Source of the DNA: Amphiscolops sp. MND2022
Taxonomy: Eukaryota
Assembly (NCBI GenBank): GCA_964187785.1
Contig: OZ076409.1
Location: 75,208,001-75,272,000, forward strand
Length of the DNA: 64,000 nt
Direction of reading: 5' to 3'
Positions 9,630 to 43,200 of this stretch are shown one piece after another. The notes under the pieces are model-generated. The model was not told where the DNA came from. It ran no database searches and saw only the letters and a program-made list of their open reading frames with translations. Within the stretch, counting starts at the first letter, position 1. Each line of letters opens with the position of its first letter. The position numbers and the translations under genes are program-made.

Positions 9630-9668
9630 TAGCCTTCCAAGTTGGCCTTCGGCCAACTTGGAAGGCTA
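9630..9668. repeat. Perfect 18-bp inverted repeat (subterminal hairpin type B)
   Basis: TAGCCTTCCAAGTTGGCC-TTC-GGCCAACTTGGAAGGCTA. Related copies at 12769-12811, 23692-23735 and 62279-62322. Confidence 0.95.
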
Positions 9669-10669
9669 GCACTCCAAATACCAGAAAACAGGAGTTCCTT
9701 TATTCTCAAAATAGCTGTGGACAGTTTCATTCAACTTTCTTTTCTCACGTTAATTGATAAAATCAGAACATAAACATTTCCATTCGCTATAAGGAGATCA
9801 TAATTGAGTTCCATAAAAACATCTTTCATTGTGTCGCTTAAAAATACCATAAAAACAAACTTGAAACATATGAATTGTATGTGGAACGTACATTCTATTT
9901 ACCAGTGAGTGTCTACCCTTATTGGCTCCACCAAATCCTCTAACCCTCCACTAGACAGTACGTTACATCATACGTTGATGTATTTCACAGTGGTGACATA
10001 GGGCCAAAAAAAAACGAAATGGAGTGTATGCATTGCTAATGTTATTAAGTCAGCCAATTGTGGTAGGAAAGGTTCAATACTACGAAAAATATCTATTCCA
10101 ACTGAAAATGATTTGGGGCAAACACATGGAACACAAAAATACCTCAATAATTTTCACCAATCAATTTCTTCCACAAAAACTTTTGTGTCCGATGGTGTAT
10201 AATTTCCTAATTTGGAATCAGCCAGTCACGTCATTTTCACATCTCAGCTCGGTCATAACAGAGCGTTCTTTTTTGAAATTGTCTCTACCCAATTTCACGT
10301 AACGAGGCTGCTACGTCCCCTATTTGGAGTGTTATCAGTGTTTATAAGGGATTTATCACTCTAATGAACATATACTTCTAATGTTGAAACTCTTTCACTT
10401 TTCTTTGTAAATTGTTAAAGTAGAACATTGCTGTTATTCAGCAGGAACTCGCTTTGGCTTGCAGAATGATGGAAAATAAATGACAAGTCGCCCTGTAAGG
10501 CACCACGTGTCGTGGGGATGACAAATATGAAACAAGTTGAACACAACAAAGCCTACTTTTGTCAACAGAAGGGAAAACGAATATTTTAATTTTGAAAATT
10601 TTTATGTTTTTTAATACACATTTTCCTCGCATCTCGGCAGTGCAACTGCAACAACCTCGCCTCCACTGG

Positions 10670-18737: not shown

Positions 18738-19783
18738 GTGGTCCGGGGTAGTTCCCCACATTATTTAGTGCGAGGCCGGGGAGGGTCCCGATGCCGAGCT
18801 TAATTTTCGCGTGTCGTACTATATCCTTTAGCACACCAGTCAAAAAACGGCGATTTTCGAATTGAACCGATAAAACTTCTTTAAACTTTGCATGTGTACT
18901 TATCTTGCCGATGTAAGAATGATGTTCTGCTGGTCAAACATGATCCTATTACTTGGCGGGAAGTTATGAGCAAATGATCGGGTTTTTCACCCAATTTCGG
19001 TACTTTTTCGCTGCGATATCTGCAGCATGTGGATACAATTGGCTGATACTTTGCATGCGAGGCATTAATGATGTCAGGTGTTTGCATGCCAAAAATCATT
19101 AGGCTGGTGATACTAGGCTGAGAGATAGAAGTGAACGAAGTAACAGAAATTTGTGAATTTTCCTGTCATTGCGTCATAATTTCCGAACTTTTATACAAAT
19201 GATGTTTCCTTTAGCGGTAGCAGTACAGTCGATGTGTTTTCAACATCACGTGGCCAGGATAAAAAATTAAAAATAAAAAAGTTCTACAAAAGTTCTCCAA
19301 AAATTCTAAAAATTGCGAATTTTTTCAAAAAAAAAATTTTTCGGGTTCCATTGTATTTTTATACCAGGAATTCAAAAATCACATTATTTATCGTGTCAAC
19401 GGCGCCAAAATGGGTTTATTTTTAATATTGACCGCTTTCACCAGCTTGATATACCAGTTTCAGTAAGTATTTGAAAAATACTCAGGGTTGAGGCAAATGC
19501 ATAAGTAGCACGATTTTAAAACGTAATTTTATTTGTCACCGGTGTTCCGAGGGATGCACAGCAGCACGCAGGAACAACGGTGACCCGGAAGGAAGGCTGT
19601 AGATACTTGTTACGACCGAAGGCAGTCACTGTTTAGTTTTGTTCGACATGATTATGTACGTCGTTGCGATGTGCATCAGCAAAAATTCACATCAGTGACC
19701 CCAAAGTGGAACAAGTTATACATGAATTGAGAACAGACAGTACCGTTCGGCCCCCTGGTAATTGGTAGCTTTGCCTCCACTGG
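18738..19783 (+). mobile_element. Cassette 9 (1.04-kb family, no terminal core)
   Basis: 1046 bp. Diverged homologue of cassette 4, with hairpin C at 19535-19584. Confidence 0.55.
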
Positions 19784-22700
19784 GTGCGCCGGGGTGTTGT
19801 CCCCAGCCCTTTCCGCCGGCGAGGGTAGGGTTCCCTTCGCCGGCTTGAACTTCGCGAAGCCAAGCTTACGTATTAGCAAACATGCCCCCTAAAAAATGCG
19901 ATCTCGAAAATGAACCGTCAGAACCGGCTAAATTTTTGCATGCACCCATATTTTGGGAAGACAAGAATTTTTTTCTGCTGACGTTTTGCCGAAAAAATAT
20001 TCGGTCATGCCGAAATACCGTATTTTTTGAAGATAAAAGGGATAAATTTGTTGGTATATAAAGTTTACCTTTAATAACTTTTACACGGTGCACGCTAGCC
20101 CAATGATGCATACTAACAAAAAGTTGTGAAGTGTGGCGCGTCGAATGATGGTGCCAAAAAAGTGCCGATCGGGGCACTCAAAGTGCCAAAAAATGCCAAA
20201 ATGTTAAGTATCACCAATATCACCTAGGCTTATAGGTCAATTTGAGCACGTTAAACGGTCCGAACGGTATCGGACCAAAAGATCAAAAATTGTCAGCATT
20301 CAATGAGGGTTTCAAAAATGTAGTTTATACACGTGTAGGATTCATATTAAAAAAGTCGATTTTTTTGAGTGTATGGCATGATGAGCTAGGATGAAATTTT
20401 TTATAATGTACATTCCATTAAAGTACTCACTATGCAGCACCAGTAGCAGCGGAAGTCATATTTATGAAAAAGATCAAGGGGCTGGGGTCTACTCACGGTA
20501 CTATCGCAAAATAGGCCTGGGGCAATAGTGGTGCCAAAAAATGCCTTATAGTGAGGAATGATTTTTTTGTAAATCAGCTCATATTTCGATACGTGTGACT
20601 TCCTTGTCAACAACGGTCCGCACGGTCTCTAACAATATAACCAAAAATTGTCAGTGAGCTATTGTGACGACCAAAATGACATCGGTTGACCTCTAAGAGG
20701 CCTCTGGAAAAATTTGATTTTTTTGAGTCACGGTCCGAGTTGATCTGTTACGTTGTATGAACATTTCATATTCATGTTACTCATAACTGAGTACAGATAG
20801 CACCGTGGGTCACCTTTATCAAAATGAACATGGGGCAGCGGTCTAACGACTGAGTGCAAACATCATACCTTAGTTGCCACAGTGAAAGGAAAAAATTTTC
20901 AGAAGTGTTCTTTTCAATTTTTTATGTCGACTCGCAGTTACAAAAATGTGATTTTCTCTTCAGCAACGGTCAGAACGGTCTCGGACCATAAGATAAAAAT
21001 TTGTCAGTGTGATATGGTGGCACCCAGAAACACATCAGAACACTGGTAGGAAGCTTCTGAACGATTTTCGAATTTTCACGTGGGTCCGAGAGTTATAGTG
21101 TCACATCGTAACTACATTTCGGGTTTGCATATATCCTCACAGAGTACAGATAGCATCATGGGTCACCTTTTCGAAAAAGAACGTGGGCCACTGGCCTATC
21201 GATTTGTCATAAAAAGTTTTCAGTCACTGCTGCACGGCGTGAATAATATGCCAATATGGGGTATTTAGCATTTTTCTGTACGACTCGGACCTACAAAAGG
21301 CCCATTTCTGCTCCACCAACGGTCTGTACGGTCATCGACCATAAGGTCAAAAAGTGTCAGTGTGCTATGGTGACGCCCAAAAACTTATCAGTACACTTGT
21401 ATAGTGCTTCTGAAAAAGTTTGGATTTTTTAGGTTAGTCCGAGAGTTATGGAGAGTTATGTTGTCACATCGAAACTACATTTCGGGTATGTATATCTCCT
21501 GACAGAGTACAGAAAGCAACATGGGTCATCTTTTGGAAAGTGAACGTGAGCCAGTGGCCTACCAATTGGTGACAAAAAGTTTTCATCACTTGGTACAGGG
21601 AGTGGAAAAAGTGCTTACATGTGTTACATAGCATATTTTCAGGCGACTCGGACTTACAACAAGCTCATTTGCTGGCGAACAACGGTCTGTACGGTCTCCG
21701 CTCAGATGGTCGAAATTTTATCGTGAGCTATAGTAACGCCCAAAAACGTATCAGTTTACCTGTAGTATGATTCTTTAAAATTTTAGTGTTTTCGCGCTGA
21801 CTATGTTAGATATGTCATTGGGAACCGCGTTCTTTTCCTATCGAAATCGTGTTTTTGACTGCCCAAAAACAGTTTTTAAAGCTCAAAAACCACATAAAAT
21901 CTTGTTTTGCATAACATGGGATGTGAATACCATGAAAAAAGTGCCAACTGTGGGTTTGGAGTCATTTTGAGAAAATCAGATGCCATTAGACGTTACACAT
22001 CAGAAAATGATATTCCACATATCAATTTATGGGTTGAGTGAAAAATAGCCCAAATGAGTTTTCAGTCAATTAGGACTCTTTTTTGTTCACAACCATGTGT
22101 ACAGCTGACGTGGAACACATATTGACCTTCCACAATGGATATATTGCGATTTTGAGTGACAAAAGCCCCGTTGACAAACAAAATTCCAAGATAAAATTTT
22201 TTTCCAAATCTTTTTTTGATGTATAGGACCACCAAATTTTGCTCACAAACATCAACTATCCATTTCTGTTAGACCAGTGGCATGTGAAAAACACAACTTG
22301 GCATTGACAAGCCACTTACACTATAAATCGAGTAGTCATGGGCAACAACATTTGCAAATCAGTTGTGAAATTGGTCAAAAATTGATAAAACATCACAATT
22401 TTGGTGGAGTCAAACTAGCAAAATTGAGTTTTATCAGCAACTATTGGCTTTTAAAGCAATCCACTGGCCCTGTAAAATAGGAAAATGATGATTACCGAAC
22501 TTTTAAGGTTACATTTCAGAGTCTGACTCAGCTAAAAATATCATACTGAAGAGACGCATTACTACAACTTCAGTCTTTTTCCCGTTGTGTCACCACTTTT
22601 TTGGTATCGGCGGTCCCACCAATACTGTTTTTGGTCTAACACTAAACCTGAGGATCAACCAAGGTGGATACCAGACTTGAAAAATCCATGCAAGAAAATC

Positions 22701-24683
22701 GACATGTCAAAAGTTGTGATGAGGAGAGATATTTCCCAAAAATTCGTGTTATATGTCACATTCCATTCCACCTTTTTTAATCTGTGCTTGTCAGTTATTG
22801 TGTTAACGCTCGTCAACGATCTCACTTACAGCCAACGAGTCGATTACAGATGTAAAAAGTTTTAGTAACGCCTGTTTCCTCGTTCTTGACACATTTTACA
22901 TCGCGTTCGTACTTAACATAAAATATTTTTTCCTCAAACACCCAATTTTCGTCAGGTCGAAAATTGAATTTCTGTCTTTTGAGCCTAATTTATGTGTCTG
23001 ACGGAACCTGTGGCCGCCAAAATACCTAAAAACAAAAGTGTGATTGGTATCAAGTGCATCAGTGACATATCAGCCACGAAAAAACGTTTCGCGAAGACAA
23101 TTTCAACTTTGAGGTGAAAATTTGGTAGACACATTTTCACAGTAAAAACAAAATTAATGAAAGAATTACGTCTTTCCTGTCAATGACTATTAATATAGCA
23201 TCAGTGTTGCGAATTTGAGGTCTATAGAGAGGTGTATATAAAAAAATGTGGTGCAAAAAGCATTGTGTAATACCAAATTTACCAGAGTACTAACGAAATT
23301 CCACTATATTTTTTGCACTTTATATCAAAAATTTGGTAGTGTAAACCTTAATCAGCAGTTCAATTCAGTAGTTTCATTCAACTCTCCATATGCTTAATTT
23401 GTTTCAAAGTGCTTGATCTTTCCGTCATTCAACACTATTTTGTTACGGCTTAAAATAGTCATACCGTTTAAGACGCATTCTTCATTAATAGATGTGATCG
23501 TTTTTCATTACCAAAGACTGATTACTGATTCACCTTTACGGTAGCTAACCAAATTGTCAATAGGTTCAAAAGCTCTCATTACTTAGACTTTTCAGACTCT
23601 ATAGATTTGACAACCTACTCACATTTATAACATTTTTGTAGGAATGACATTGAACCATGTTTTTTGGAAACAGCTGATAACTGCATCTTGTGATAGCCTT
23701 CCAGGTTGGCCTTGTGTCAACTTGGGAAGGCTATCACTACAAAAAACAAAAAACCAGGAGTTCGTTTTGATGGGATTTTCCGGTTGATTATTTCATTCAA
23801 CATTCTATTGTCCCAGTAGTTGATACTTATGGTCAACAGACATTTTTCAGAATCCGTTAACCAAAATTAAAGGGCAAAAAATACATTTTTTTTGTTTCTT
23901 TTGCGGATTCAACTTGAATTTCGTGAATTTTTTAAGTACTGTTCAATCACAAAAAATTTTATACACCCCTGTTAGCTTCACAAAGCCACCAGCTACCTCC
24001 ACATGACAGTACAACGTTAGTTCCTCTGTTTAATAAGGCTTTCATTAGTGGTGTCATAGTGTCGAAAACAAATCACATGGAAATATACATGGATATAGAC
24101 AAACATCATCAAGTCGTGCTGGGAAATGTTCAGTATAAATGTCGTTCTCCCACTTAAAACTCTTTACAGAAAATCTTCTTTCCTTATTTTAGACAATTCA
24201 TAAAACATAGAAAAGATTTCCAACAACGTTTCTTAGACATAAATTAAACTTATATGAGGAATACAAAAATCAAAACATTCCGCATGTTAGCTGGGTCAGA
24301 TTTGTTCATTTTTTCCGTAGACAGATTACCGCACCCACCACTTTCAACGCCAATTTCACCCAATATTTGGAGAAACAAAATGTTCACGATTCAGACACAT
24401 TCCTATGAGGGAAAATTGACCAATTACCACAATTCAATGTATACCGTGGATTCTGCCAATGACGGTGCTTCTTTCCACTAATAAAGAGCTAGGACTATCT
24501 TTGCTTTCTTTCGACAACAGTTACCATTAACGATCCATTGGTAATGTGATGACATGTATCATTCAATCACAAACAACATTTCTCCAATACATGTCTTACG
24601 CTGGACGTAGTTAAGAGATCATTCTATCTTGCCTACCAAACGTTTATCACATCTAGTGCTTAGAGTTGAGCTGCCATCGCTAG
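19784..24683 (+). mobile_element. Cassette 10 (4.90-kb family, no terminal core)
   Basis: 4900 bp. Diverged homologue of cassette 3, with left hairpin at 19815-19844 and hairpin B at 23692-23735. Confidence 0.55.
20254..21800 (+). repeat. Internal tandem subrepeat of about 353-363 bp
   Basis: The AACGGTCnGnACGGT motif recurs at 20254, 20612, 20965, 21318 and 21681. Confidence 0.85.
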
Positions 24684-25883
24684 GTGGCCGGAAATTTTTT
24701 TTTCATCAAAATCTTTGCCATTGGGGGAGGGGCCCCGGATGGCCAGTAGTACGGGATAGCTTCCTACCAAATCCAGGCGGAAAAAACGTGATTTTGGAAA
24801 CTAGCCGTCAGAATTTGCTCAAATTTTGCATACGGCTTCCTATAACAATCCTAAGAACTAATCCCTACTGGCATTTTGCCCAAAAAGCGCAAAAAGTTGG
24901 TCAAAATCTTAGTTTTTTGGTCAAAAAATGGCAATTTTTCGAAAAAATTTTTTTTCAGAGACAATTACTCGTAACTGGTTCACCCAGCGCAAAAACGCCT
25001 AGCTGATTTATTGTTGGGGACTTCATGAGGAGTGCGTATACAAATTTTCGTCCAGATCGGAGAAAAAATGACTAAGTATTAGCCGGAATTCGGACGCATT
25101 TTTTCGCAAATTTTTGAAAACCTAGTCTATCTCTGCCGTTTTTTGCCCAGATTTTTTTCCAGGTCCTCTCCTAAAGGCCTCCCCTGGCCGGTTTACTTCC
25201 CAGAAAAACCATTTGGCCCTAAATACGGAGTTTCAGCGTTCTAGCATTCCCGGGCGAAAAGATGTGGGAGTTAGAAAAAATTCAAAATTTTTCAAAAAAC
25301 TTTTTTTTCGTTTCCCGGCCCCCCAATGAAGGGGAACGACCCCCCAACGAGGATTTTTGGTGAATTCACGTGGAAAGGCCTTGTTTTGTGGAGAAAATTG
25401 CCGTTTAGTGCGACTTTTTATCTTAACTTGACGTTGACCTCTGTCGTTTTGAATTTGATATTAGTATGTGTTGAGCATGTGAAAAGTTGATGATTTCAGT
25501 TGTTCTCTCGTGTTCAAGCCATTGAGATACAAGCGGTAGTGATCAAAATGTGATTTATCGCAATTTGGTGGTGCTTTTGGTGTATTTTGATTCTTTTAAA
25601 TAAAAAGTTGTTCTTTATATATTTGGTGTATTGATTCAAATGAACAAGAAACAGTTGAGTACATTTCATCTCCCCCCTTGTGGGGGAGATGAGGATGTAC
25701 CCGCTAAATGACACGCACAATGGCCCAATTTTATTTTTATGCGACGTTTTCTAGGCTTTTGCGCAAGCCCACTAATATTTAGACTGGTTTCCTTTTCTTT
25801 TACTCCAAAATTTTCCGTACTAACCACCTTACGCACCACCAGCTCAACGTAACATCTGTAACGTCAACGCCACATACTCGCAT

Positions 25884-25930
25884 CAACGCCCACCGTCCGT
25901 GGGCATGCCGAGGCATGCCCTTCGACGACG
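25884..25930 (+). repeat. 47-bp conserved terminal core (representative copy) with 20-bp palindrome
   Basis: CAACGCCCMCCGTCCGTGGGCATGCCGAGGCATGCCCTTCGACGACG. The 33 copies start at 2614, 5685, 13007, 15193, 17378, 18650, 25884, 27153, 28449, 29735, 31035, 32322, 33604, 35790, 37963, 40138, 41430, 42741, 44007, 45276, 46568, 47838, 49131, 50416, 51695, 53012, 54300, 55571, 56844, 58132, 59396, 60677 and 62648. Confidence 0.97.
25901..25920. promoter_or_regulatory. Match to the p53-family response element (RRRCWWGYYY x2, zero spacer); representative copy
   Basis: GGGCATGCCG-AGGCATGCCC matches 19 of 20 consensus positions. Function is not shown. Confidence 0.35.
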
Positions 25931-28900
25931 TATGCCAAATAGCGCCACAGGGCGCAAACTTGTCCGCTAGGTGGCCGGGAATTTTTTTTTCAGCAAAATC
26001 TTTGCCGCTGGGGGAGGGGCCCCGGGCGGCTGTTAACCGGAATTCATACTATGCAAAACCTATCACAATTCTCAGATCTCAGGATCCAGCCTGTAGGATT
26101 CGCTCAAATTTGGCACAGAGCCTCCTTGAATGATTATAAGAACTTTTTCCTAGTGGCGTTTTTCGATTGAAATATTTTATGTTGACCAAAATTGCGTTTA
26201 AAATGCCCATTGTTGCGTTTTTATTGTCTTTTTCGAATTTGACGGTCCATAACTTTTTTTGAGGTGCTCGGAGCAGGTCGCACGTGGAGAGCAATATTAC
26301 TCAGCACTAAAAGGGGAGTGCGTGAACAAAATTTCGTCCAAATCGGATGAAAATTGGATGAGTAATAGCCGGAAATTTGGCGCATTTTGTCGACTTTTTT
26401 CGAAAACCCAGTCTATCTCTGCCGTTTTTTGCCCAGATTTTTTCCCAGGTCCTCGCCTAAAGGCCTCCCCTGGCCGGTTTACATCCCAAAAAAGCCATTT
26501 GGCCCTTTTGCCGCAGTTTCAGCGTTCCAGCGTTTCCCGAACAAAAGATAAATGACTTAGAATTTTTTCAAAAAAAGGTTCAAAATTTTTTTTTCAAATT
26601 CAGGCCTCCCAAAGTCAAGAAACTTCCACACAACTAGTATTGCAAGTGAATGCATGTGGAAAGTGCTTGAATAGACGAGGAAAATGAGCTATTATAAAAC
26701 TCTGTAGCTTAACCTGACGTTGACTTATGACATTTTTAGTGTGAGCTTCCTATGTGCTAAAAAGTCAAAAAACGTAAGTCTCTTTGAAAACAAATCGGAA
26801 TACGTCCAGTCAACCCCAGAGCTGGTAAATTGCCGTTGTCTAGTGCAGCAACGCCATTTAGAGTCTTTTGACCCACTTTGATACCGTTTTGATACCGTCT
26901 TATTCATCCGATAGCACAAAACCGTTGCGTACATTCCATCTCCCCCTTTGTGGGGGAGATGAGAATGTACCCGCTAAATGACACGCACAATGGCGCAATT
27001 TTATTTTTATACAATGTTTTCTAGGCTGTCGCGCAAGCCCACTAATATTTAGACTGGTTTCTTTCTCTTTCACTCCAAACTTTCCCTACTAACCACCTTA
27101 CACACCATCAGCTCAACGTTACTTCTGTAACGTCAACGCCACATACTCGCATCAACGCCCACCGTCCGTGGGCATGCCGAGGCATGCCCTTCGACGACGT
27201 ATGCCCATTAGCGCCACAGGGCGCCCAATTTTTTCTAGGTGCCGGTGTCTTTTTACACAATGGGGGAAGTTGCGCGGTTGGGGAGGGTCCCTGACGCGCT
27301 TCCGTGAGATCAGGTTTTTCAACTAGTGAAATCGACAAAGAAAATTGGGATCTCGTAAACTAGCCATACGATTTGGCTGAAATTTGGCACACGTACCCCC
27401 CTCGGCACGGTGAAGATGATTCCCTACTGACGTTTTTCCCGCTAAACATTTTTTGTTGACCAAAATAACGGTTTTTGGGGTAAAATTTTCAACTTTTTTT
27501 AAATTTCATCTTATATCTCGCCACGGGTGCACGCTAGCGCTTCCAAACCTTGCTGACGAAAGTTTGCAAACTGTCTCAGGAATGCTGTGTGAAAATTTAA
27601 GCTCAATCGGACTCGAACTCGAGGAGATATAGCGTTTTTCCGGAGCGGGGGGGTTTAATTTTTCTAACGGTCCAGCTTATCTTTGCCATTTTTTCGAAAA
27701 TGCACTCGCCTAAAGGCCTCCCCTGGCCGGTTTTATTCCCAGCAAAACCATTTGGCCCTAAATACGGAGTTTCAGCGTTCCAGCATTTCCGGGCGAAAAG
27801 TTGTGGGACTTAGAACATTTCAAAAATTTTCAAAAAATTTTTTTTTCGTTATTTGGGCCCCCAAAGTGGGGGAAAAGACCCCCCAACCAGTAAATCAAGT
27901 GAATGCATGTGGAAAGGCCATGTTTAGAGGAGAAAAATGCCGTTTAGAACGTCTTTTTATCTTGACTCAACGTTGACTTATGACGTTTTGAAGGTGATGT
28001 TTGGAGGTGTAAAGCAAGTGAATAGTAAACGTTATGAGTATTTATCTGATCTGAAAGCCATTGAGATGCAATATGGTTTGCTCAAAACGTAATTCATTGC
28101 AGTTTGGCAATCAATCAACACCCTTTGTTGTCGTTTGACATACTTTTTTGTTGTTAAAATAAAAAATTTTGTGTATTTATTCATTTTTTTCTCATCAAAT
28201 AACTTGGAACAGTTGAGTACATTCCATCCCCCCCTTCCGGGGGAGATGCGAATGTACTCGCAAAAAGCACCGAACTACGGCCCTTACCTTCCCGAGCTAC
28301 GCAGTATAAGGATTACATATTGGTTCCGACATTTTCATAGAGTTAAATCTTGGTAATCTGTCTGGATATGCAGAAAAACCAGCACGTGCTTTTTTATACC
28401 AAGTTGCTCACAACGACAATTATTTTATATCAACGCCCCCATATTTATCAACGCCCCCCGTCCGTGGGCATGCCGAGGCATGCCCTTCGACGACCCGCAC
28501 CAAAATATGCGTTAGCGCGGTAGCCGCTAGGTGCCGGGATTTCTATTCGTTCGAGTATGTGGCGCGTGTGGGTAGGGCCCCTGGCGCGCTCTTGTGTTTG
28601 GGGGTTTCCTACTTCTAAATCACGTTCAGATTTCCGGGATCTCGTAAACTATCCATACGATTTGGCTGAAATTTGGCACACGTACCCCCCTCGGCACGGT
28701 GAAGATGACTTCCTACTGACGTTTTTCCCGCTAAACATTTTTTGTTGACCAAATTAACGGTTTTTGGTGGAAAATTTTTGATTTTTTTTAAATTTTATCT
28801 TATATCTCGCCACGGGTCCACGCTAGCGCTTCCAAACCCTGCTGACGAAACCTCGCAAACTGTCTCAGGAATGCTGTGTGAAATTTTCAGCTCAATCGGA

Positions 28901-31900
28901 CTTAAACTCGGGGAGATATAGCGTTTTTCCGGAGCGGGGGGGTTTCATTTTTCTAACGGTCCAGCTTATCTTTGCCATTTTTTCGAAAATGCACTCGCCT
29001 AAAGGCCTCCCCTGGCCGGTTTTACTCCCAAAAAAACCATTTGGCCCTAAATACGGAGTTTCAGCGTTCTAGCATTCCGGGGCGAAAAGTTGTGGTACTT
29101 AGTAAATTTCAAAAATTTTCAAAAATTTTTTTTTCGTTCTTTGGGACCCCAAAGTGGGGAAAAGACCCCCCAACCAGTAATTTGAGTGAATTCATGTGGA
29201 AAGGCCATGTTTAGCGGCGAAAAATGCTTTTTAGATCGTCTTTTTATTTTAACCTGTTGTTGACTTATGTTGTTTTGAAGGTGATGTTTGGATGTGTGAA
29301 GCATGTGAAAAGGTAATTTTTTGTGTCTTTATCTCTTCTAAAAGCCATTGAGATGCAATCTGTTTTGCTCAAAACGTAATTCAATGCAATTTGGCAGTCA
29401 ATGAACACAATTTGGTGTCTTTTGTTATATTTTTCTGTTGATATAATAAAAAATTTTGTGTCTTTATTAATTTTTTTTAAATAAAATAACTTGAAACAGT
29501 TGAGTACATTCCATCCCCCCTTCCGGGGGAGATGGAAATGTACTCGCTAAAAGCCGCGAACAAGAGCCCATACCTTCCTGCGCTACGCAGTATAAAGATT
29601 GCATGTTGGTTCCGACTTTTTGGTAGTGTTATATCTTGGTAATTTGACTGAATATGGAGAAAAATCAGCAAGTGCTCTTTTATAGCAAATTGCTGACAAC
29701 GACAATTTTTTTATATCAACGCCCCCATATTTATCAACGCCCCCCGTCCGTGGGCATGCCGAGGCATGCCCTTCGACGACGTATACCAAAATATGCGTTA
29801 GCGCGGTAGCCGCTAGGTGCCCGGATTTCTATTCATTAAAGTATGTTGCGCGTGTGGGTAGGGCCCCGTGGCGCGCTCTTGTGTCCCTGTTTTAAAATCT
29901 GCAATTTCCGGCTGCTTTCGGAGCGATTTTCTAAACTATCCATACGATTCGGCTGAAATTTGGCATGTGAGTTCCTATGACAGTTCTAAGAATCATTTCC
30001 TACTGGCGTTTTGCCCGGAAAATTTTTTTTGTTGACTTATAACGGTTTTTTTGGCCAAAAAATGCGATTTTTTCAAAAAAAATTTTTTTCGGAGCCCATA
30101 TCTTTTTTCAGGGTGCCCGGAGCGGGACGCGTTAAACTGATTATAAACTCTACGGTTCATGGGCTTTACGGAGAACCTAGGCTCGTTTCGATCGGACAAA
30201 TAGTCTTGGAGATATAACGGCATTTTTTGGGAATTTTTTGGAAAGTTTTCTAACGGTCCAGCTTATCTTTGCCATTTTTTCGCAAATGTACTCGCCTAAA
30301 GGCCTCCCCTGGCCGGTTTTAATCCCAGCAAAACCATTTGGCCCTAAATACGGAGTTTCAGCGTTCCAGCATTTCCGGGCGAAAAGTTGTGGGACTTAGA
30401 AAAATTTCAAAAATTTTCAAAAATTTTTTTTCCGTTTTCCGCCCTCCCCCCCGAGGGGAAAAGACCCCCCAACCAGTAATTTGAGTGAACTCATGTGGAA
30501 AGGCCATGTTTAGAGGAGAAAAATCCCGTTTAAATCGTCTTTTTATCTTTATTCAACGTTGACTTATGACGTTTTGAAGGTGATGTTTGGAGGTGTGAAG
30601 CACGTGAAAAGTAAACGTTATGAGTATTTATCTGATCTGAAAGCCATTGAGATGCAACCTGTTTTGCTCAAAACGTAATTCATATCAGTTTGGTAGTCAA
30701 TCAACACCCTTTGTTGTCATTTGACATCTTTTTTTGTTGATATAAGAAAAAATTTCGTGTATTTATTCATTTTTTTCTCATCAAATAACTTGAAACAGTT
30801 GAGTACATTCCATCCCCCCTTCACGGGGGAGATGAGAATGTACTCGCAAAAAGCCCCGAACTACGGCCCTTACCTTCCTGAGCTACGCAGTATAAAGATT
30901 GCATATTGGTTCCGACATTTTGATAGAGTTATATCTTGGTAATCTGTCTGGGTATGCAGAAAAACCAGCACGTGCTTTTTTATACCAAGTTGCTCACAAC
31001 GACATTTATTTTATATCAACGCCCCCATATTTATCAACGCCCCCCGTCCGTGGGCATGCCGAGGCATGCCCTTCGACGACGTATACCAAGATATACATCG
31101 AGCGCGTTAGCCTAGGTGCCGGGATTTCTATTCGATAAAGTATGTTGCGCGTGTGGGTAGGGTCCCTGGCGCGCTCTTGGGTATGGTGTTCACCAGCTAG
31201 GAAATAGGGGTCGATTTTTCGGGATCTCCTAAACTAGCCACACGATTTGGCTGAAATTTGGCACACGTACCCCCCTCGGCATGGTGAAGATGATTTCCTA
31301 CTGACGTTTTTCCCGCAAAATTTTTTTTGTTGTCCAAAATAACGGTTTTTGGGGGAAAATTTTGAATTTTTTTTAAATTTTATCTTATATCTCGCCACCG
31401 GTTTACGCTAGCGCTTCAAAACCCTGCTAAAGAAAGCTTGCAAACTGTCTCAGGAATGCGGTGTGAAATTTTCAGCTCAATCGGACTTAAACTCGGGGAG
31501 ATATAGCGTTTTTCCGGAGCGGGGGGGTTTCATTTTTCTAACGGTCCAGCTTATCTTTGCCATTTTTTCGAATATGCACTCGCCTAAAGGCCTCCCCTGG
31601 CCGGTTTTATTCCCAGCAAAACCATTTGGCCCTAAATACGGAGTTTCAGCGTTCCAGCATTCCCGGGCGAAAAGTTGTGGGACTTAGAAAAGTTCAAAAA
31701 TTTTCAAAAAAAATTTTTTCCGTTTTCCGCCCTCCCCCCCTAGGGGAAAAGACCCCCCAACCAGTAATTTGAGTGAATTCATGTGGAAAGGCCATGTTTA
31801 GAGGAGAAAAATGCCGTTTAGAACGTCTTTTTATCTTGGCTCAACGTTGACTTATGACGTTTTGAAGGTGATGTTTGGAGGTGTAAAGCACGTGAATAGT

Positions 31901-33690
31901 AAACGTTATGAGTATTTATCTGATCTGAAAGCCATTGAGATGAATATGGTTTGCTCAAAACGTAATTCATGGCAGTTTGGCAATCAATCAACACCCTTTG
32001 TTGTCGTTTGACATACTTTTTTGTTGTTATAATAAAAAATTTTGTGTATTTATTCATTTTTTTCTCATCAAATAACTTGAAACAGTTGAGTACATTCCAT
32101 CCCCCCCTTCCGGGGGAGATGAGAATGTACTCGCAAAAAGCACCGAACTACGGCCCTTACCTTCCCGAGCTACGCAGTATAAGGATTACATATTGGTTCC
32201 GACATTTTCATAGAGTTAAATCTTGGTAATCTGTCTGGATATGCAGAAAAACCAGCACGTGCTTTTTTATACCAAGTTGCTTACAACGACAATTATTTTA
32301 TATCAACGCCCCCATATTTATCAACGCCCCCCGTCCGTGGGCATGCCGAGGCATGCCCTTCGACGACGTATACCAAGATATACATCGAGCGCGTTAGCCT
32401 AGGTGGCCGGAAATTTTTTTTTTCATCAAAATCTTTGCCATTGGGGGAGGGGCCCCGGATGGCCAGTAGTACGGCATAGCTCCCTACGGAATCCAGGCGG
32501 AAAAAACGTGATTTTGGAAACTAGCCGTCAGAATTTGCTCAAATTTTGCATACGGCTTCCTATAACAATCCTAAGAACTAATCCCTACTGGCATTTTGCC
32601 CAAAAAACGCAAAAAGTTGGTCAAAATCTTAGTTTTTTGGTCAAAAAATGGCAATTTTTCGAAAAAAAAATTTTTCAGAGACAATTACTCGTAACTGGTT
32701 CACCCAGCGCAAAAACGCCTAGCTGATTTATTGTTGGGCACTTCATGAGGAGTGCGTATACAAATTTTCGTCCAGATCAGAAGAAAAATGACTAAGTATT
32801 AGCCGGAATTCGGACGCATTTTTTCGCAAATTTTTGAAAACCTAGTCTATCTCTGCCGTTTTTTGCCCAGATTTTTTTCCAGGTCCTCTCCTAAAGGCCT
32901 CCCCTGGCCGGTTTACTTCCCAGAAAAACCATTTGGCCCTAAATACGGAGTTTCAGCGTTCTAGCATTCCCGGGCGAAAAGATGTGGGACTTAGAAAAAA
33001 TTCAAAATTTTTCAACAAATTTTTTTTTCGTTTTCCGGCCCCCCAATGAAGGGGAACGACCCCCCAACGAGGATTTTTGGTGAATTCACGTGGAAAGGCC
33101 TTGTTTTGTGGAGAAAATTGCCGTTTAGAGCGACTTTTTATCTTAACTTGACGTTGACCTCTGTCGTTTTGAATTTGATATTAGTATGTGTTGAGCATGT
33201 GAAAAGTTGATGATTTCAGTTGTTCTCTCGTGTTCAAGCCATTGAGATACAAGCGGTAGTGATCAAAATGTGATTTATCGCAATTTGGTGGTGCTTTTGG
33301 TGTATTTTGATTCTTTTAAATAAAAAGTTGTTCTTTATATATTTGGTGTATTGATTCAAATGAACAAGAAACAGTTGAGTACATTTCATCTCCCCCCTTG
33401 TGGGGGAGATGAGGATGTACCCGCTAAATGACACGCACAATGGCCCAATTTTATTTTTATGCGACGTTCTCTAGGCTTTTGCGCAAGCCCACTAAAATTT
33501 AGACTGGTTTCCTTTTCTTTTACTCCAAAATTTTCCGTACTAACCACCTTACGCACCACCAGCTCAACGTAACATCTGTAACGTCAACGCCACACACTCT
33601 CACTAACGCCCACCGTCCGTGGGCATGCCGAGGCATGCCCTTCGACGACGTATGCCAAATAGCGCCACAGGGCGCAAACTTGTCCGCTAG

Positions 33691-36600
33691 GTGGAGGTTA
33701 TTTTATAATAATTAATGTGTTTTTTTCCGGAGTTTGTGGCTTTGGAAAAAACAAAAGGCGAGAAATTGGGCACTCCGGGCTGAACCGTAAAGGCCGATTT
33801 TATACTGTAAAAAACGCCCATTCTAACTACGATCTCGAAACCCAGCCGTACGATTTTGCTGAAAATTTGCATGCGGCTACAAAATCAGATTCTAAGAACT
33901 TTTTTCTGCTGACTTTTTTTTGGAATTTTTTTGTACGTTTCCCCCCCGCCCCCTAAAGGGGTCAATTTTCCCCAATTTTGTACTTATGAGTCATATTCTC
34001 AAAACTGGTTGATCTGAGAGCAATCCTTGTGGAGAGAACTTTTGTAGAGCGCTCTTCAGTTGACTTTTTGGAGTTTTTACTTTGGTGGTACGTTCACCCC
34101 CCACAGCGGAAATAGCGTTTTTGTAACTTCCGGTCGAGCAATTTTCCACCCAAAAATTAGAATTATGCCAGTTTAGAGCACGAAGCAGTAGTTTTAGCGT
34201 GTTCACACTCTCCTGAAGTTTTGTTGGGCGTATTGAGATAGACATGATATCAAGTGTTCAGTTCACCCCCATCACCCCCTGGACCGGAAATGAACTTTCT
34301 TTTTTCCCCTTTCTTACAGGAAGTGTCGATTTTCACCGGTAAGGAGTCCTTGTACGAGCAACTAGCAGGGCATCAAAATTGACGTACCACCTGGGGTCAA
34401 CTTAGTGAACACGTGTTGTCCAGTCATGGGTACCGCCATGACCGGAAATGGGGTCAAAACCCCCCTTTTAGTTGTTGTTTTATCAATTTGACTAGTGTTT
34501 GGTCCACATTCAAGTCGCGTAAAACAATTGAACCTGTGTGAGCATAAACTGCATGTTCACTGCGTAAACGTAACAGACACTGCCAGATACCGGAAGTAAC
34601 CCCCCGTGACCGGAAGTTGTCATTTTTGACCGGAAATGTTCCAAAAAATAGCGTAAATGCAGTTTTTCACTGCTTTTTAAGGTCAAGTAATTACTTTTTT
34701 CAATCTGCACGAGCTTGTCTTCAGGTTCGCTTTTGTTATCCGTGCACAGCGCAACAAATATACATCTGTAAAATTTTCTCTATAATATCGTCGGAGAGAG
34801 AAATAACGGGTTCTTGGGGCTTTTTTAAAAAAATAATAGTCTATATCTGTAATTTTTGTCCAAAGTTATTCAACAGTACTACCACAGGGGTTAGTCTCTG
34901 CCCAAATACATGCCTAACAAAACTATTTGTCACATTCGTCTCAGTTTGAGCGCTCCAGCTTTGCCTGGTCATAAGTTAAGTGACGTAGAAAATTTTCATT
35001 TTTTTTTCAAAAAAAATTTCTCGCCTTCAGTTCCTCCAAAGTAAAGAAACTTCCTCACAACTAGGATTGCAAGTGGATGCATGTCGCAAGCCCTATAATT
35101 GAAGCACAAAAAACCGCTTAGGACGTCTCTTCATCGTAATTTGACGTTAACGTATGGTGCTTTGAATGAGAGCTTGCTAAGGGGTCGAGAAGTCAAAGTA
35201 TGTAAATGGAACGTATGTCTCGTCGAAAAGTCATCGGAATACATGCAATGAACCCCAATTGCCCTCAATTGCAGCTGCCTAGTGCAACAACGTCTTTCAG
35301 GGACCTTTAACCTATTTTTATTTGTGTCAAAACTATTTTAAGTTCAGTTAGCAAGAAACACTTGAGTGCATTCTCATCTCTCCCCAGCGGGTGAGATGAG
35401 AATGTTCTTGCTAAAAGCCAGGTACTACGGCCCACTTTTGTTTTAATGCGACGCATTCTCTGCTTTAGCACATAGATATTTTTATTTCGCCTGATTTTCT
35501 GTATACACTCTGACTTGTTATTATGAGTTCCTCGTCAATACTTCACATATATTTACAATCATCAAACGTTATCGTCAACGCCAAATAGATTTAGGCGCCC
35601 ACCATTACGTAGGTATGTCGAGGCATACTTTTCGATTACGTATGTCAAAACGCAAACGCGATAAAAAGTGCTAAAATTCAGAAACAGTGACAAACAAATT
35701 TGACTATTTGACATATGGGAGGTTTTCATATGGAACTTACACATAGCTGACATTTCACAACATTGCAGCTGACGCCCACATACCAACATCAACGCCCACT
35801 GTCCGTGGGCATGCCGAGGCATGCCCTTCGACGACGTTTGCCAAATACCCTTTACCGACGCGCACTCTGCCGCTAGGTGGATGGTATTTTATAACAATTA
35901 AAGTGTTTTTTTCCGGAGTTTGTGGCTTTGGAAAAAACAAAAGGCGAGAAATTGGGCACTCCAGGCTGAACCTAAAAACACCCTAAAATTCGCCCGATTT
36001 TTTTACGATCTCGAAACCCAACCGTACGATTTGGCTGAAAATTTGCATGTGGCTCCTAATCAATGAGTAATGAAAAAGTGTAGAAGTGACTTTTCCTGGG
36101 AAAATTGTTTTTGTTGCACTTTTTGCGCAATTTTTGACCGATTGTTGCGTTTTTTATGTCACTTTCGACTTTTCAGGCAAAAAACTCATAGATGCTTTGA
36201 TCCTAGCGCATCCAGTGTTTCGACCAAAAAGTTGCAACATGGTCTTTTACGTACGTTGTGAAAATTTGGTAGCCATCGTATCACCCCCCACTGAGTTAGA
36301 GGGGAACTTCCGGTGGATTTTAGCACCCTAAAAACAAGGACCTCCTAAACTTCAGCATGAAGCCGTAGTTTTAGCGTGCTCATAACCTGCTGAAGTTTTG
36401 TTGGGCATGTTGAGATAGTCATGATAGCATGTGTTTAGTTCACCCCCCATCACCCCCTGGACCGGAAATGAACTTTTTGTGCACTATCATTCCGGAAGTC
36501 TCCAGTTTCACCGTTAAGCAGTCCTTGTACGAGCAACTACCAGGTCATCAAAATTGAAGTACCACCTGAGGTCAACGTAGTGACTACGTGTTGTCCAGTC

Positions 36601-39600
36601 ATAGGTTCCTCTATGACCGGAAATGGGGTCAAAACCCCCTTTTTTGGTTGTTTTTTAACAATTTGACTAGTGTTTGGTCCACAATCAAGTCGCGTAAGTC
36701 CATTGAATCAGTGAGAGCAGAAATTGTATGTTCACTGCGTAGACATAACTGACTCTGACAGATACCGGAAGTAACCCCCCGTGACCGGAAGTTGTCATTT
36801 TTGACCGGAAATGGTCCAAAATAAAGCGTAAAATCAGTTTTTCACTGCTTTTTAAAGTCAACTTATTACTTTTTCAATCTTCGCGAGCTTGTATTCAGAT
36901 TCGTTTGTGTTACCCGTGCACTTTGCAACAAATATACATCTGTAAAGTTTTCTCTATATTATAGTCTGATAGAGAAATAACGTGTTTTTGGGACTTTTTT
37001 CAAAATTATTAGACTATATCTGTCATTTTGACCCAACGTTATTCAACAGTACAACCACAGTGGTTAGTCTCTGCCCAAATATATGCCTAACAAAACTATT
37101 TGGCCCATTGGCCTCAGTTTGAGCGTTCCAGCTTTGCGTGTTCATTAGCTAAGGGACTTGAAAAATTTTCAAACTTTTTCAAAAAAAATTTTTCTCATAT
37201 TTTTGTCTCCCAGAGTGAAGAAACTTTCACACAACTAGGATTGCTACTGGATGCATGTGGCAAGCCCTATAATTGAAGGGAAAAATTCCGCTTAGAACGT
37301 CTCTTTATCGTAACTTGACGTTAACGTATGGTGCTTTGAATGAGAGCTTGATAAGAGGTCGAGAAGTCAAAGTGTGTGAATGGAACGTATGTCTCGTCGC
37401 AAACTCATCGGAATACATGCAATGAACCCCAATTGTCCTGAATTGCAGTTGCCTACTGCAACAACGTTTTTCTGGTACATTTTACTCTTTTTCATAAGTG
37501 TCAAAATTAGTTTTAAATTCAGTTAGCAAGAAACAATTGAGTACATTTTCATCTCTCCCCAGCGGGTGAGATGAGAATGTTCTTGCTAAATGCCAGGTAC
37601 TACGGCCTCCTTTTGTTTTATTGCGATGCATTCTCTGCTTCAGCACATAGATATTTTATTTCGCTTGATTGTTTGTATACTCTCTGACTTGTTATTATAA
37701 ATTTCTCGTCATTACTTTACATAAATTTGCAACCATGAAACGGTATCGTCAACGCCACATACATTTAGACGGCACCATTCCGTAGGTATGTCGAGGCATA
37801 CCTTTCGATTACGTATGTCAAAACGCAAACGCGATAAAAAATGCTGAAAGTCTGAAACAGTGACAAACAATTTTGACTATTTGACATATGGTATGTTTTT
37901 ATATGGAAGTTACGCATCACAGACATTTCACAACTTTCCAGCTGACGCCCACATACCAACATCAACGCCCACCGTCCGTGGGCATGCCGAGGCATGCCCT
38001 TCGACGACGTATGCCAATTTCTATATATCTACACCCAATTGCGGTAGCAGCTAGGTGGATGGTATTTTATAACAATTAAAGTGTTTTTTTCCGGAGTTTG
38101 TGGCTTTGGAAAAAACAAAAGGCGAGAAATTGGGCACTCCAGGCTGAACCTAAAAACACCCTAAAATTCGCCCGATTTTTTTACGATCTCGAAACCCAGC
38201 CGTACGATTTGGCTGAAAATTTGCATGTGGCTCCTAATCAATGAGTAATGAAAAAGTGTAGAAGTGACTTTTCCTGGGAAAATTGTTTTTGTTGCACTTT
38301 TTGCGCAATTTTTGACCGATTGTTGCGTTTTTTATGTCACTTTTGACTTTTCAGGCAAAAAACTCATGGATGCTTTGATCCTAGCGCATCCAGTGTTTCG
38401 AACAAAAAGTTGAAGCATGTTCTTTTACGTATGTTGTGAAAATTTGGTTGCCATCGTATCACCCCCCACTGAGATAGAGGGGAACTTCCGGTGGATTTGA
38501 GCACCCTAAAAACGAGGACATCCTAAATTTAAGCATGAATCCGTAGTTTTAGCGTGCTCATACCCTGCTGAAGTTCTGTTGGGCATATTGAGATAGTCAT
38601 GATATCATGTGTTCAGTTCACCCCCCATCACCCCCTGGACCGGAAATGAACTTTTTTCGCACTATCATGCCGGAAGTCTCCAATTTCACCGTTAAGCAGT
38701 TCTTGTACGAGCAACTACCAGGACATCAAAATTGAAGTACCACCTGAGGTCAACGTAGTGACTACGTGTTGTCCAGTCATAGGTTCCGCTATGACCGGAA
38801 ATGGGGTCAAAACCCCCTTTTTTGGTTGTTTTTTAACAATATGACTAGTGTTTAGTCCACATTGAAGTCGCGTAAGTCAATTGAACCAGTGTCAGAATAA
38901 ACTGTATGCCCACTGCGTAGACGTAACTTACACTGACAGATACCGGAAGTAACCGCTTGTGACCGGAAGTGGTCAATTTTGACCAGAAATCGTCCAAAAA
39001 GTAGCGTAAAAGCAGTTTTTCACTGCTAACTAAGGTCAAAGTTTTACATTTTTCAATCTGCGCGAGCTTGTCTTCAGGTTAGTTTTTGCCGCCCGTGCAC
39101 AGTGCATCAAATATACATCTGTTAAAATTTCTCTATAATGTCGTCGGGGAGAAATAACGGGTTATTGGGACTTCTTCCAAAAACATTAGTCTATATCTGT
39201 CATTTTTACACAAAGTTATTCAACAGTACAACCACAGCGGTTAGTCTCTGCCCAAATTTGTGCCTTACAAAACTATTTGGCCCATTGGTCTCAGTTTGAG
39301 CGCTGCAGTTTTGCCTTGTCATAAGTTAAGGCTCCTAAAAATTTTTCAAAAATCTTTCAAAAAAAACTTCTCAACTTCAGGTTCCCCAAAGTAAAATTTC
39401 CACACAAGTAGGTTTCAAAATGGATGCATGTGGGAAGCCCTATATTTGAAAAGAAAAATGCCGCTTAGAACGCCACTTTAGCGTAACTAGACGTTAACGT
39501 ATGGTGCTTTGAATGAGAGCTTGATAAGGGGTTGAGAAATCAAAGTGTGTAAATGGAACGTATGTCTCGTCGAAAACTCATGAGAATACATTCAATGAAC

Positions 39601-40224
39601 ACCAATTATCATCAATTGCAGTTGCCTAGTGCAAAAACGTCTTTCAAGGACAATTTATTCGTTTTCCTAACTGTCCAAATTGCTTTTAAATTCAGTTAGC
39701 AAGAAACAGTTGAGTACATTCTCATCTCTCCCCATAGGGTGAGATGAGAATGTTCTTGCTAAAAGCCAGGTACTACGGCCCACTTTTGTTTTAATGTGAC
39801 GCATTTTGTGCTTTAGCACATAGATACTTTTATTTCGTCTGACTTTTCGTAGACACTCTGACTTGTCATTATAAATTTTTCGTCATTACTTTACATAAAC
39901 TTAATACCATACAACTTTAACTTCAACGCCACATACATTTAGACGCCCACTATTCCGTAGGTACGCCGCGGCATGCCTTTCGACGACGTATGTCAAAACG
40001 CAAACGCAATAAAAAGTGCTGAAATTCAGAAACAGTGACAAACAAATTTGACTACTTGAAATATGGGAGGTTTTTATGTGGAACTTACACATAGCTGAAA
40101 TTTCACAACATTGTAGCTGACGCCCACATGCCAACATCAACGCCCACCGTCCGTGGGCATGCCGAGGCATGCCCTTCGACGACGTATAGCAAATCCCTTC
40201 CACCGACGCGCACTCTCCCGCTAG
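33691..40224 (+). mobile_element. Cassettes 18-20 (2.18-kb family)
   Basis: Starts at 33691, 35877 and 38055; lengths 2186, 2178 and 2170 bp. Degenerate second cores at 35593, 37767 and 39941. Confidence 0.6.
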
Positions 40225-43200
40225 GTGCCGGGATTTCCATTCGATAAGGAATTCTGCGCGTGTGGGTAGGGCCCCTGGCGCGCTCCTGTGTTTTCGGTTT
40301 TCCTACTCCAAATTCACACCCCAGTTATCTCCGATCTCGTAAACTATCCATACGATTTGGCTGAAATTTGGCACACGTACCCCCCTCGGCACGGTGAAGA
40401 TGATTTCCTACTGACGTTTTTCCCGCTAAACATTTTTTGTTGACCAAAATAACGGTTTTTGGGGTAAAATTTTCAACTTTTTTTAAATTTTATCTTATAT
40501 CTCGCCACGGGTACACGCTAGCGCTTCCAAACCTTGCTGACGAAAGTTTGCAAACTGTCTCAGCAATGCTGTGTGAAATTTTCAGCTCAATCGGACTTAA
40601 ACTCGAGGAGATATAGCGTTTTTCCGGAGCGGGGGGGTTTCATTTTTCTAACGGTCCAGCTTATCTTTGCCATTTTTTCGAAAATGCACTCGCCTAAAGG
40701 CCTCCCCTGGCCGGTTTTATTCCCAGCAAAACCATTTGGCCCTAAATACGGAGTTTCAGCGTTCCAGCATTCCCGGGCGAAAAGTTGTGGGACTTAGAAA
40801 ATTTCAAAAATTTTCAAAAATTTTTTTTCCGTTATTTGGGCCCCCAAAGTGGGGGAAAAGACCCCCCAACCAGTAAAGCAAGTGAATGCATGTGCAAAGC
40901 CCTTGTTTAGAGGAGAAAAATGCCGTTTAGAACGTCTTTTTATCTTGGCTCAACGTTGACTTATGACGTTTTGAAGGTGATGTTTGGAGGTGTAAATCAC
41001 GTGAATAGTAAACGTTATGAGTATTTATCTGATCTGAAAGCCATTGAGATGCAATATGGTTTGCTCAAAACGTAATTCATGGCAGTTTGGCAATCAATCA
41101 ACACCCTTTGTTGTCGTTTGACATACTTTTTTGTTGTTATAATGAAAATTTTGTGTATTTGTTCATTTTTTTCTCATCAAATAACTTGAAACAGTTGAGT
41201 ACATTCCATCCCCCCTTCCGGGGGAGATGAGAATGTACTCGCAAAAAGCAGCGAATTACGGCCCTTACCTTCCCGAGCTACGCAGTATAAGGATTACATA
41301 TTGGTTCCGACATTTTCATAGAGTTAAATCTTGGTAATCTGTCTGGATATGCAGAAAAATCAGCACGTGCCTTTTAATACCAAGTTGCTCACAACGACAA
41401 TTATTTTATATCAACGCCCCCATATTTATCAACGCCCCCCGTCCGTGGGCATGCCGAGGCATGCCCTTCGACGACGTATACCAAGATATACATCGAGCGC
41501 GTTAGCCTAGGTGCCGGGATTTCTATTCGATAAAGTATGTGGCGCGTGTGGGTAGGGTCCCTGGCGCGCTCTTGGGTATGGTGTTCACCAGCTAGGAAAT
41601 AGGGGTCGATTTTTCGGGATCTCCTAAACTAGCCACACGATTTGGCTGAAATTTGGCACACGTACCCCCCTCGGCACGGTGAAGATGATTTCCCACTGAC
41701 GTTTTTCCCGCAAAATTTTTTTTGTTGTCCAAAATAACGGTTTTTGGGGTAAAATTTTGAATTTTTTTTAAATTTTATCTTATATCTCGCCACCGGTTTA
41801 CGCTAGCGCTTCAAAACCCTGCTAAAGAAAGCTTGCAAACTGTCTCAGGAATGCGGTGTGAAATTTTCAGCTCAATCGGACTTAAACTCGGGGAGATATA
41901 GCGTTTTTCCGGAGCGGGGGGGTTTCATTTTTCTAACGGTCCAGCTTATCTTTGCCATTTTTTCGAAAATGCACTCGCCTAAAGGCCTCCCCTGGCCGGT
42001 TTTATTCCCAGCAAAACCATTTGGCCCTAAATACGGAGTTTCAGCGTTCCAGCATTCCCGGGCGAAAAGTTGTGGGACTTAGAAAAGTTCAAAAATTTTC
42101 AAAAATTTTTTTTTCCGTTTTCCGCCCTCCCCCCCTAGGGGAAAAGACCCCCCAACCAGTAATTTGAGTGAATTCATGTGGAAAGGCCATGTTTAGACGA
42201 AAAAATTGCCGTTTAGAACGTCTTTCTATCTCAACCTGACATTGACTTATGAAGCTTTAAAGGTGATGTTTGGACGTGTGAAGCATGTAAAAAAAGGAAT
42301 TTTTTTGATTTTATTTCATCAGAAAGTCATTGAATCACACGCTGTGAAGCCCAGAGCGTGGTTTCTAATAATTTGGTATCGTTTAAACGCATTTTGGTGT
42401 CTTTTTACTCTATTTAAAAAACTTTGCTCCTGAAAATTAGTAAAATTTTGATTACTTTTCTTACTTTCCATTAATTTTTTTTCTTATATTTTTACTTGAA
42501 ACAGTTGAGTACATTCCATCTCCCTTCCCGGGGGAGATGAGAATGTACTCGCAAAAAGCCGCGAACTACGGCCCATACCTTCCCGAGATACGCAGTATAA
42601 AGATAACATAATGGTCCAGACATTTTAATGGAGTTGTATCTTGGTAATATGTCTGGATTTGAAGAAAAATCAGCACGTGCCATTTTATACCAAGTTGCTC
42701 GCAACGACAATTAATTTAAATCAACGCCCCCCACAAAAATCAACGCCCCCCGTCCGTGGGCATGCCGAGGAATGCCCTTCGACGACGTGCACCAAAATAT
42801 GCCCCGAGCGCGTTAGCCTAGGTGGCCGGAAATTTTTTTTTTCAGCAAAATCTTTGCCATTGGGGGAGGGGCCCCGGATGGCCAGTAGTACGGCATAGCT
42901 CCCTACGGAATCCAGGCGGAAAAAACGTGATTTCGGAAACTAGCCGTCAGAATTTGCTCAAAATTTGCATACGGCTTCCTATGACAATCCTAAGAACTAA
43001 TCCCTACTGGCATTTTGCCCGAAAAACGCAAAAAGTTGGTCAAAATCTTAGTTTTTTGGTCAAAAAATGGCGTTTTTTCGAAAAAATTTTTTTTCAGAGA
43101 CAATTACTCGGAACTGGTTCACCTAGCGCAAAAACGCCTAGCTGATTTATTGTTGGGCACTTCATGAGGAGTGCGTATACAAATTTTCGTCCAAATCGGA

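Follow-up and report, generated by a model that had tools for sequence, protein, structure and literature searches.

The array and its end signals

The DNA studied is a stretch of 64,000 nucleotides from Amphiscolops sp. MND2022 (assembly GCA_964187785.1, contig OZ076409.1, positions 75,208,001 to 75,272,000 of the forward strand), henceforth the window. A head-to-tail array fills it from end to end (1..64000, + strand): 36 complete units, named U01 to U36, lie between two units cut by the window ends, and consecutive units meet at the 7-mer CT[A/G]GGTG, here called the joint. Judged from its letters, the window is a gene-free chain of several kinds of mobile-element-like cassettes of 1–5 kb. 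The feature is real and unusual: comparison of its copies shows site-precise gain or loss of non-coding cassettes.

The 7-mer occurs 37 times on the + strand and 6 times on the − strand of the 64-kb window, when about 5 occurrences per strand are expected. A scan for it yielded 32 CTAGGTG joints (for example, at 24680..24686, + strand) and five CTGGGTG joints, and the base immediately after the 7-mer is only G or C (19 and 18 cases, respectively). Unit lengths are 1.03–1.05, 1.27–1.39, 1.98, 2.17–2.19, 3.07 and 4.9 kb, with a single orientation throughout. No insertion of a unit away from a joint was seen in the window.

Beginnings of units are marked by the motif GG[G/T]AGGG.CC, found 31 times on the + strand and never on the − strand, with a 7-mer at most 100 bp upstream in 31 of 31 cases. 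In the form GGKAGGGBCC this subterminal motif has 33 matches where 0.01 are expected, and lies some 35–45 bp past the joint (for example, at 24725..24734, + strand); six units (the 2.2-kb family and U09) carry it in a variant form. Because this independent motif always has the 7-mer upstream, the list of joints is not an artefact of the search. A second 5′ signal, GATCTC...ACGATTT, is found near +105 to +150 after the joint, and it may resemble the core repeats of HINE elements, a likeness that motif searches in the Helentron supplements did not confirm. At the other end of the units, a conserved core with a palindrome stands upstream of the joint in 33 of the 37 junctions. The palindrome (for example, at 25901..25920, + strand) has a 9-bp stem and a 2-nt loop and ends 45–58 nt before the unit end; comparison of junctions delimits a variable linker between core and joint (for example, at 25933..25966, + strand). 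Core-less 3′ ends were found in four of the 36 complete units (U02, U03, U08 and U09). The families are zoned: core-less units, long units and all five G joints lie within 1–24683, and the segment 24684–60764 is made mostly of 1.3-kb units, with 2.2-kb units in runs of two and three.

Searches for coding capacity and known structures were negative. None of 98 reading frames of 62 or more amino acids, taken from representative units only, reached the Pfam cut-off, and seven of the 98 gave weak matches (E 0.015–0.048). Rfam gave no match at gathering score and one match at E 0.49 in 9000–34000, and no tRNA was found in the window. Terminal inverted repeats (TIRs) are absent, the mean longest inverted match being 6.3 bp in the 36 units and 6.5 bp in shuffled sequences. 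Neither asymmetric terminal inverted repeats nor subterminal inverted repeats were found in the units, and a search for folds across the joint resembling the attC sites of integrons found none (z values of eight junction folds lay between −1.8 and +1.5).

Gain or loss of units at the joint

Evidence on how the array changes is provided by a duplicated block. Copy 1 (24684..33690, + strand) consists of seven consecutive 1.3-kb units, U10 to U16. Copy 2 (42822..60764, + strand) contains seven extra units besides their counterparts, which keep the order of copy 1: U22, U23, U26, U27, U30, U33 and U35. Units were matched by their first 105 bp; when the 26 units U10–U35 were shuffled 5000 times, a collinear chain of seven arose in 8 cases, in a test built after the pattern had been noticed. 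The seven extra units form four blocks, each of which has a paralogous empty site in copy 1. Three are two-unit indels: 2559 bp at 45362..47920, with its empty site at 27235 and a breakpoint window of 11 bp; 2595 bp at 50498..53092, with its empty site at 29813 and a breakpoint window that is exactly the 7-mer; and 2546 bp (U31 and U32) at 54381..56926, with its empty site at 31112 and a window of 17 bp. The fourth is a single-unit indel of 1269 bp at 58213..59481, with its empty site at 32399 and a window of 11 bp (all on the + strand). U31 and U32 differ at one position in 1273 bases (99.9% identity), so that one is either a very young tandem copy of the other or a duplicate created by the assembly.

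Thus, all four indels, of 1.3–2.6 kb, end in windows of 7–17 bp that contain the 7-mer. Flanks of empty and filled sites are 98–100% identical over the left 60 bp and 90–98% identical over the right 60 bp. In each case the 7-mer is present once at the empty site and once at each end of the filled insert, and the empty site combines the linker of the left filled joint with the 5′ end of the right one around a single CTAGGTG. Exact homology of 36–53 bp was available upstream, in the core, and none of the four indels used it; a crossover in the core is disfavoured because it would leave the other linker. We conclude that units are, very probably, joined with site precision at the 7-mer. As far as the compared copies tell, the differences are compatible with gain in copy 2 or with loss in copy 1.

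Further support comes from the similarity between sequences at either side of the joint. Among 21 adjacent 1.3-kb dimers, left and right pairwise similarity was uncorrelated when the boundary was set at the joint (r = −0.02), while the other 40 boundaries gave r values of 0.39–0.96. Where two junctions share the downstream end only, identity reaches 0–4 bases 5′ of the 7-mer (34 pairs, with 0 in 23 of them); where they share the upstream end only, it reaches 0–10 bases 3′ of the 7-mer (17 pairs, with 0 in 9). Over the pairs of core-bearing junctions, a weak residual correlation across the joint (Mantel r = 0.21, p = 0.003) is put down to family clustering.

The first-pass annotation of this stretch, in which cassette n is our unit U(n−1), had singled out three pairs of near-identical cassettes, and these were found as described: 11/17 (24684–25970 and 32403–33690, 98.1% identity, offset 7719), 12/24 (25971–27238 and 44094–45361, 99.4%, offset 18123) and 14/28 (28531–29816 and 49211–50497, 99.5%, offset 20680). 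Two of the three belong to the duplicated block. The flanking sequences quoted for cassettes 11, 17, 14 and 28 are also exact. The additional assertion that the neighbours of such pairs differ is not confirmed on the upstream side of 14/28 and 12/24. Upstream of 14/28 the neighbours are 95.7% alike and have the same rare 5′ end. The match of pair 12/24 does not stop at the joint either: it spans 25853..27245 (+ strand; 99.3% identity to 43976–45368), beginning 114 bp before the joint, inside the upstream unit and 5′ of the core hairpin, and it therefore crosses core and linker. Upstream of these shared 114 bp the bodies are about 55% alike.

Such cases bear on the proposal that the linker travels with the upstream unit. 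Of the 528 pairs that can be formed with the 33 core-bearing junctions, 17 match in body as well as linker, against 1.8 expected; a match of linker together with downstream end is found in 2, against 1.5 expected. The association of linker and body is thus in excess, as proposed, but in three of the 33 junctions (28527, 44090 and 46646) linker and body are mismatched, the linker having been swapped at or near the core; the view that the core undergoes no exchange is contradicted by these junctions. Furthermore, the 1.3-kb units are mosaics with recurrent breakpoints in conserved internal blocks, and the identities of collinear pairs in the duplicated block are uneven, from 99.5% down to partly unalike, so that later conversion is needed. 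Because mosaic units and core exchange are both found, homologous exchange also appears to be active. The earlier dichotomy, site-specific instead of homologous joining, is accordingly retained in its first half: site-precise joining is supported by the four paralogous indels, which also supply, inside the window, the presence/absence comparison of cassettes that had been recommended, but the view that homologous recombination plays no part is wrong.

The position of the join within the 7-mer can be narrowed. Among the 33 joints from 13088 onward, a lone G joint (19780..19786, + strand) is preceded by the only 3′ end of the gcctcca type in that segment, and ends of this type also precede the G joints at 10666 and 11699, with different downstream units. 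Since the lone G joint follows a gcctcca end, the variable base (R) goes with the upstream unit, in agreement with the first-pass annotation, albeit from a single informative site. The related units U02 and U09 end in G and A, respectively; their 3′ ends did not align. Beyond the window, pattern scans of metagenome contigs gave a sole match, a public contig (L001, positions 1–1172) that contains the core, CGAGGTG and the 5′ motif; no match was found in viral contigs or in the prokaryote genomes scanned. As L001 is itself a joint of two units of this system, tandem joining is not confined to the Amphiscolops locus. Its core is identical to that of U36 (51 of 51 positions), and the bodies are about 70–78% alike. 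GGTG is invariant in the 38 joints (37 in the window plus L001), and the outside joint has CGAG in place of CTRR. The join lies somewhere between R|GGTG and RGGTG|, an interval with five candidate points. The interval "within GGTG" given previously is a fair one, although five possible points remain, and because of them an overlap of the kind left by a recombinase, a blunt CTRG|GTG joint and a 4-bp duplication are indistinguishable.

Other features of the units deserve description. Long internal palindromes are of two classes: class 1 (for example, at 25660..25698, + strand) belongs to the 1.3-kb units and lies about 300 bp before their 3′ end, and class 2 is located at 23692..23735 (+ strand) in U09 and also at 9627–9670, 12769–12812 and 62279–62322, in U02, U04 and U36 besides U09. 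Class 2, with arms of up to 18 bp, is common to units of 4.9, 1.39 and 1.98 kb, between which there is little other alignable sequence. Unit U04 seems to be a composite of a first kilobase of the 2.2-kb type and palindrome class 2. In the 2.2-kb units the terminal core is preceded, at a distance of about 200 bp, by a second, degenerate core that is not followed by a joint (15000–15040, 17185–17230 and equivalents in U18 and U19), and its stem shows paired changes. The 4.9-kb unit U09 (19784..24683, + strand) is 83.5% like U02 (5770–10669) over 3.2 kb, lacks a core and encodes no Pfam family at cut-off. Diverged repeats of about 350–380 bp occur three to four times inside the 4.9-kb units (6516–7774 and the matching part of U09). 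In U36, a 240-bp repeat is found at a spacing of 505 bp.

Candidate mechanisms

Any mechanism must account for gains or losses that comprise entire units, alone or in series, and that end precisely at the joint, for a single GGTG-bearing 7-mer per joint and for a fixed orientation. Our preferred explanation, to which we assign a probability of roughly 40%, is that the units are Crypton-like, non-autonomous cassettes, and that a tyrosine recombinase moves them in circular form and inserts them at joints already present. The enzyme, encoded elsewhere, would cut out a single unit or several as a circle, and the joint of this circle (3′ end, GGTG, 5′ end) would have the same build as every joint of the array. 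The circle would then recombine into another joint, and arrays might thus grow and be shuffled in the manner of integron cassettes. The duplication of the seven-unit block and the mosaic units, visible as a pattern in the array, would be due to gene conversion and unequal crossover within conserved blocks. Because the joint of the circle matches those of the array, the circle model explains joint targeting, fixed orientation, the single word and indels of one or two units; three of the four indels comprise two units, an outcome expected if excision can take place between any pair of joints.

Known systems were compared using the relevant literature (PMC3212892, PMC13465315, PMC5148889, PMC8266576, PMC4067079, PMC10288648, PMC3706591, PMC8869645). 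Cryptons are described there as having direct repeats of 4–6 bp and a proposed circular intermediate, and most listed CryptonS families share the terminal repeat TATGG, several non-autonomous ones being 1.3–1.7 kb long. The array is similar in its lack of TIRs and in having one short direct word at both ends across families, with one copy at the empty site. It differs in the word itself (GGTG or CTRGGTG) and in the presence of dense multi-family arrays, which the Crypton accounts consulted do not describe.

Several observations speak against the Crypton-like interpretation. No recombinase gene was found among the reading frames compared with Pfam. A simple tyrosine-recombinase site is described as having inverted arms of 11–13 bp around a spacer of 6–8 bp; at the array joint the arms are, at best and over all spacer choices, complementary at a mean of 4.2 of 13 bases, and a site of that kind is not recognized. 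The 3′ end CTRG, with its R tied to the upstream unit, is a signature of Helitron1. The events may be insertions or excisions. In a 2011 survey, animal Cryptons had no terminal repeats, and no tandem arrays are described there.

A close rival, although somewhat unlikely in our estimate, is that the units are rolling-circle (HUH) elements whose 3′ ends resemble those of Helitrons (hairpin and CTRG) and whose 5′ end, GTG, is new; they would insert immediately behind an existing 3′ end, the two-unit inserts arising through bypass of an end. In the sources covered, Helitron1 is characterized by a 3′ CTRR and by a palindrome or hairpin of 16–20 nt about 11 bp from the 3′ end, and tandem insertions and end bypass are reported for Helitrons. 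CTRG, which conforms to CTRR, is present at the 37 joints of the window, 31 of them confirmed by the independent 5′ motif, and its R follows the upstream unit. A near stem of 5 bp or more, ending 5–18 nt before the 7-mer, was found in 13 of 30 distinct ends versus 3.1 in shuffles, a count in which the ends are related and represent about four hairpin types; the other 17 ends have no near hairpin, and the conserved 20-nt palindrome sits much further in, as indicated above. The core stem has double-sided changes at two of its nine pairs, and its single changes (five G.T versus one C.A) give a weak hint of the same sign. However, the 5′ TC and the A^T target of Helitrons are absent at 37 of 37 joints, where GTG follows CTRG; L001 has CGAG though its other signals are intact; and the known Helitron targets would not restrict insertion to joints, in contrast with the strict joint-to-joint stacking of the array. 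Helitron2 and HINE elements are described as having asymmetric or subterminal inverted repeats of 11–15 bp and a TT or T-rich target. The units resemble these and Helentrons in being non-coding, in the palindrome 45–60 nt from the 3′ end and in the internal repeats of the long units, but have neither the inverted repeats nor the target, and the array motifs had no match in the Helentron supplements. Replitrons have, in the account available, short direct terminal words, a right-end hairpin and orientation-specific insertion after RG, as reported for Replitron-1; the array, unlike them, has one word per joint instead of one per end, and lacks fuzzy ends, variable duplications and a Rep gene.

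Bacterial integrons offer another term of comparison: their cassettes are oriented and enter or leave, one at a time or several together, at joints that they have in common. The units behave likewise, and the locus works like an integron-style cassette array, with no family membership established. Differences are that the cassettes carry no genes, that no integrase was found, that the joint is not placed in a conserved hairpin and that the host is a eukaryote. A broader proposal would be that of a eukaryotic integron-like system, in which several families share a joint that each insertion regenerates, and long arrays are assembled and rearranged by a site-specific enzyme not recognised so far; recurrence of the signals in an unrelated public contig would imply a wider, unclassified lineage. 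We consider this proposal doubtful.

It is less probable still that the enzyme belongs to a class, be it another recombinase or a nuclease, not yet linked to such ends; under this reading the units may also serve the host in a structural or regulatory role. None of the known families satisfied every criterion that could be applied, and the 51-nt core is 100% conserved between U36 and L001 despite the divergence of the bodies; these facts would fit such an enzyme, as would the absence of comparable arrays from the literature searched. There is no positive evidence for it, however, and the family may already be classified in Repbase or Dfam.

Improbable to a greater degree is a relationship with Dada, target-specific DDE transposons without TIRs, which would have stacked at one target and left one target duplication between neighbors. 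The Dada reports covered describe elements lacking TIRs, with duplications of 6–7 bp after CT, one direction of insertion and two families in tandem split by one duplication, and the array is similar in that it lacks TIRs, is site-specific, has a single orientation and separates tandem neighbors by a short word after CT. In addition, a split RNA gene would be expected at the two outer ends of the array, which fall beyond the window. A 6-bp duplication would, however, copy R from the resident site; the 7-mer is doubled at filled sites, yet at the only joint that is informative R goes with the 3′ end upstream of it. No RNA gene was seen in the window, and subterminal inverted repeats were not found in the units. 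The ends also differ from those listed for Dada. Of six array motifs compared with the 2022 Dada supplement, four have no match, and the two 7-mers have 27 and 71 matches in 1.09 Mb, four passages among the matches listed being internal. Tandems in the Dada literature covered are pairs, not dozens.

Finally, a complex satellite shaped by homologous recombination and microhomology repair alone, with the 7-mer as a mere bystander, would accommodate the block duplication, the 99.9% identical adjacent pair, the many mosaic breakpoints and the core exchange at 3 of 33 junctions, but is very improbable, as the four indels bypass 36–53 bp of homology for a 7–17 bp window, units that differ in length and content (1.0–4.9 kb), some of them core-less, use the same joint, and left-right linkage vanishes only there.

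Three further candidates were rejected. The resemblance of the joint to AG|GT splice signals does not hold at the five joints with GG|GT, and splicing cannot explain indels in DNA. For Y1 enzymes of the repetitive extragenic palindrome or IS200 type, the literature covered describes a guide of the GTAG type, placed 5′ of a hairpin, by which cleavage is directed to a CT site; in the array GTRG overlaps the stem (its R pairs with Y), does not co-vary with the joint, and four joints have no core upstream. Site-specific non-LTR (long terminal repeat) retroelements are recognized by 5′ truncation and a 3′ tail, and the full 5′ signal follows 37 of 37 joints with no tail before any.

Significance of cassettes proposed to target their own joints

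No array of this kind was named in the literature searched, which did not extend to subscription papers or Repbase Reports, and the family may therefore be catalogued; no paper in that search mentioned CTAGGTG together with a transposon. Target-specific DNA transposons are presented as rare in eukaryotes in the sources covered, and those described target RNA genes or microsatellites. As the paralogous empty sites fix the ends within a few bases, the matching enzyme should be findable by one genome search. If the preferred explanation is true, a eukaryotic recombinase that places multi-kilobase circles at a site regenerated each time would be a useful tool. Elements aimed at their own joints would represent a further way to spare host genes, and joint targeting may be a route from mobile DNA to satellite-like arrays.

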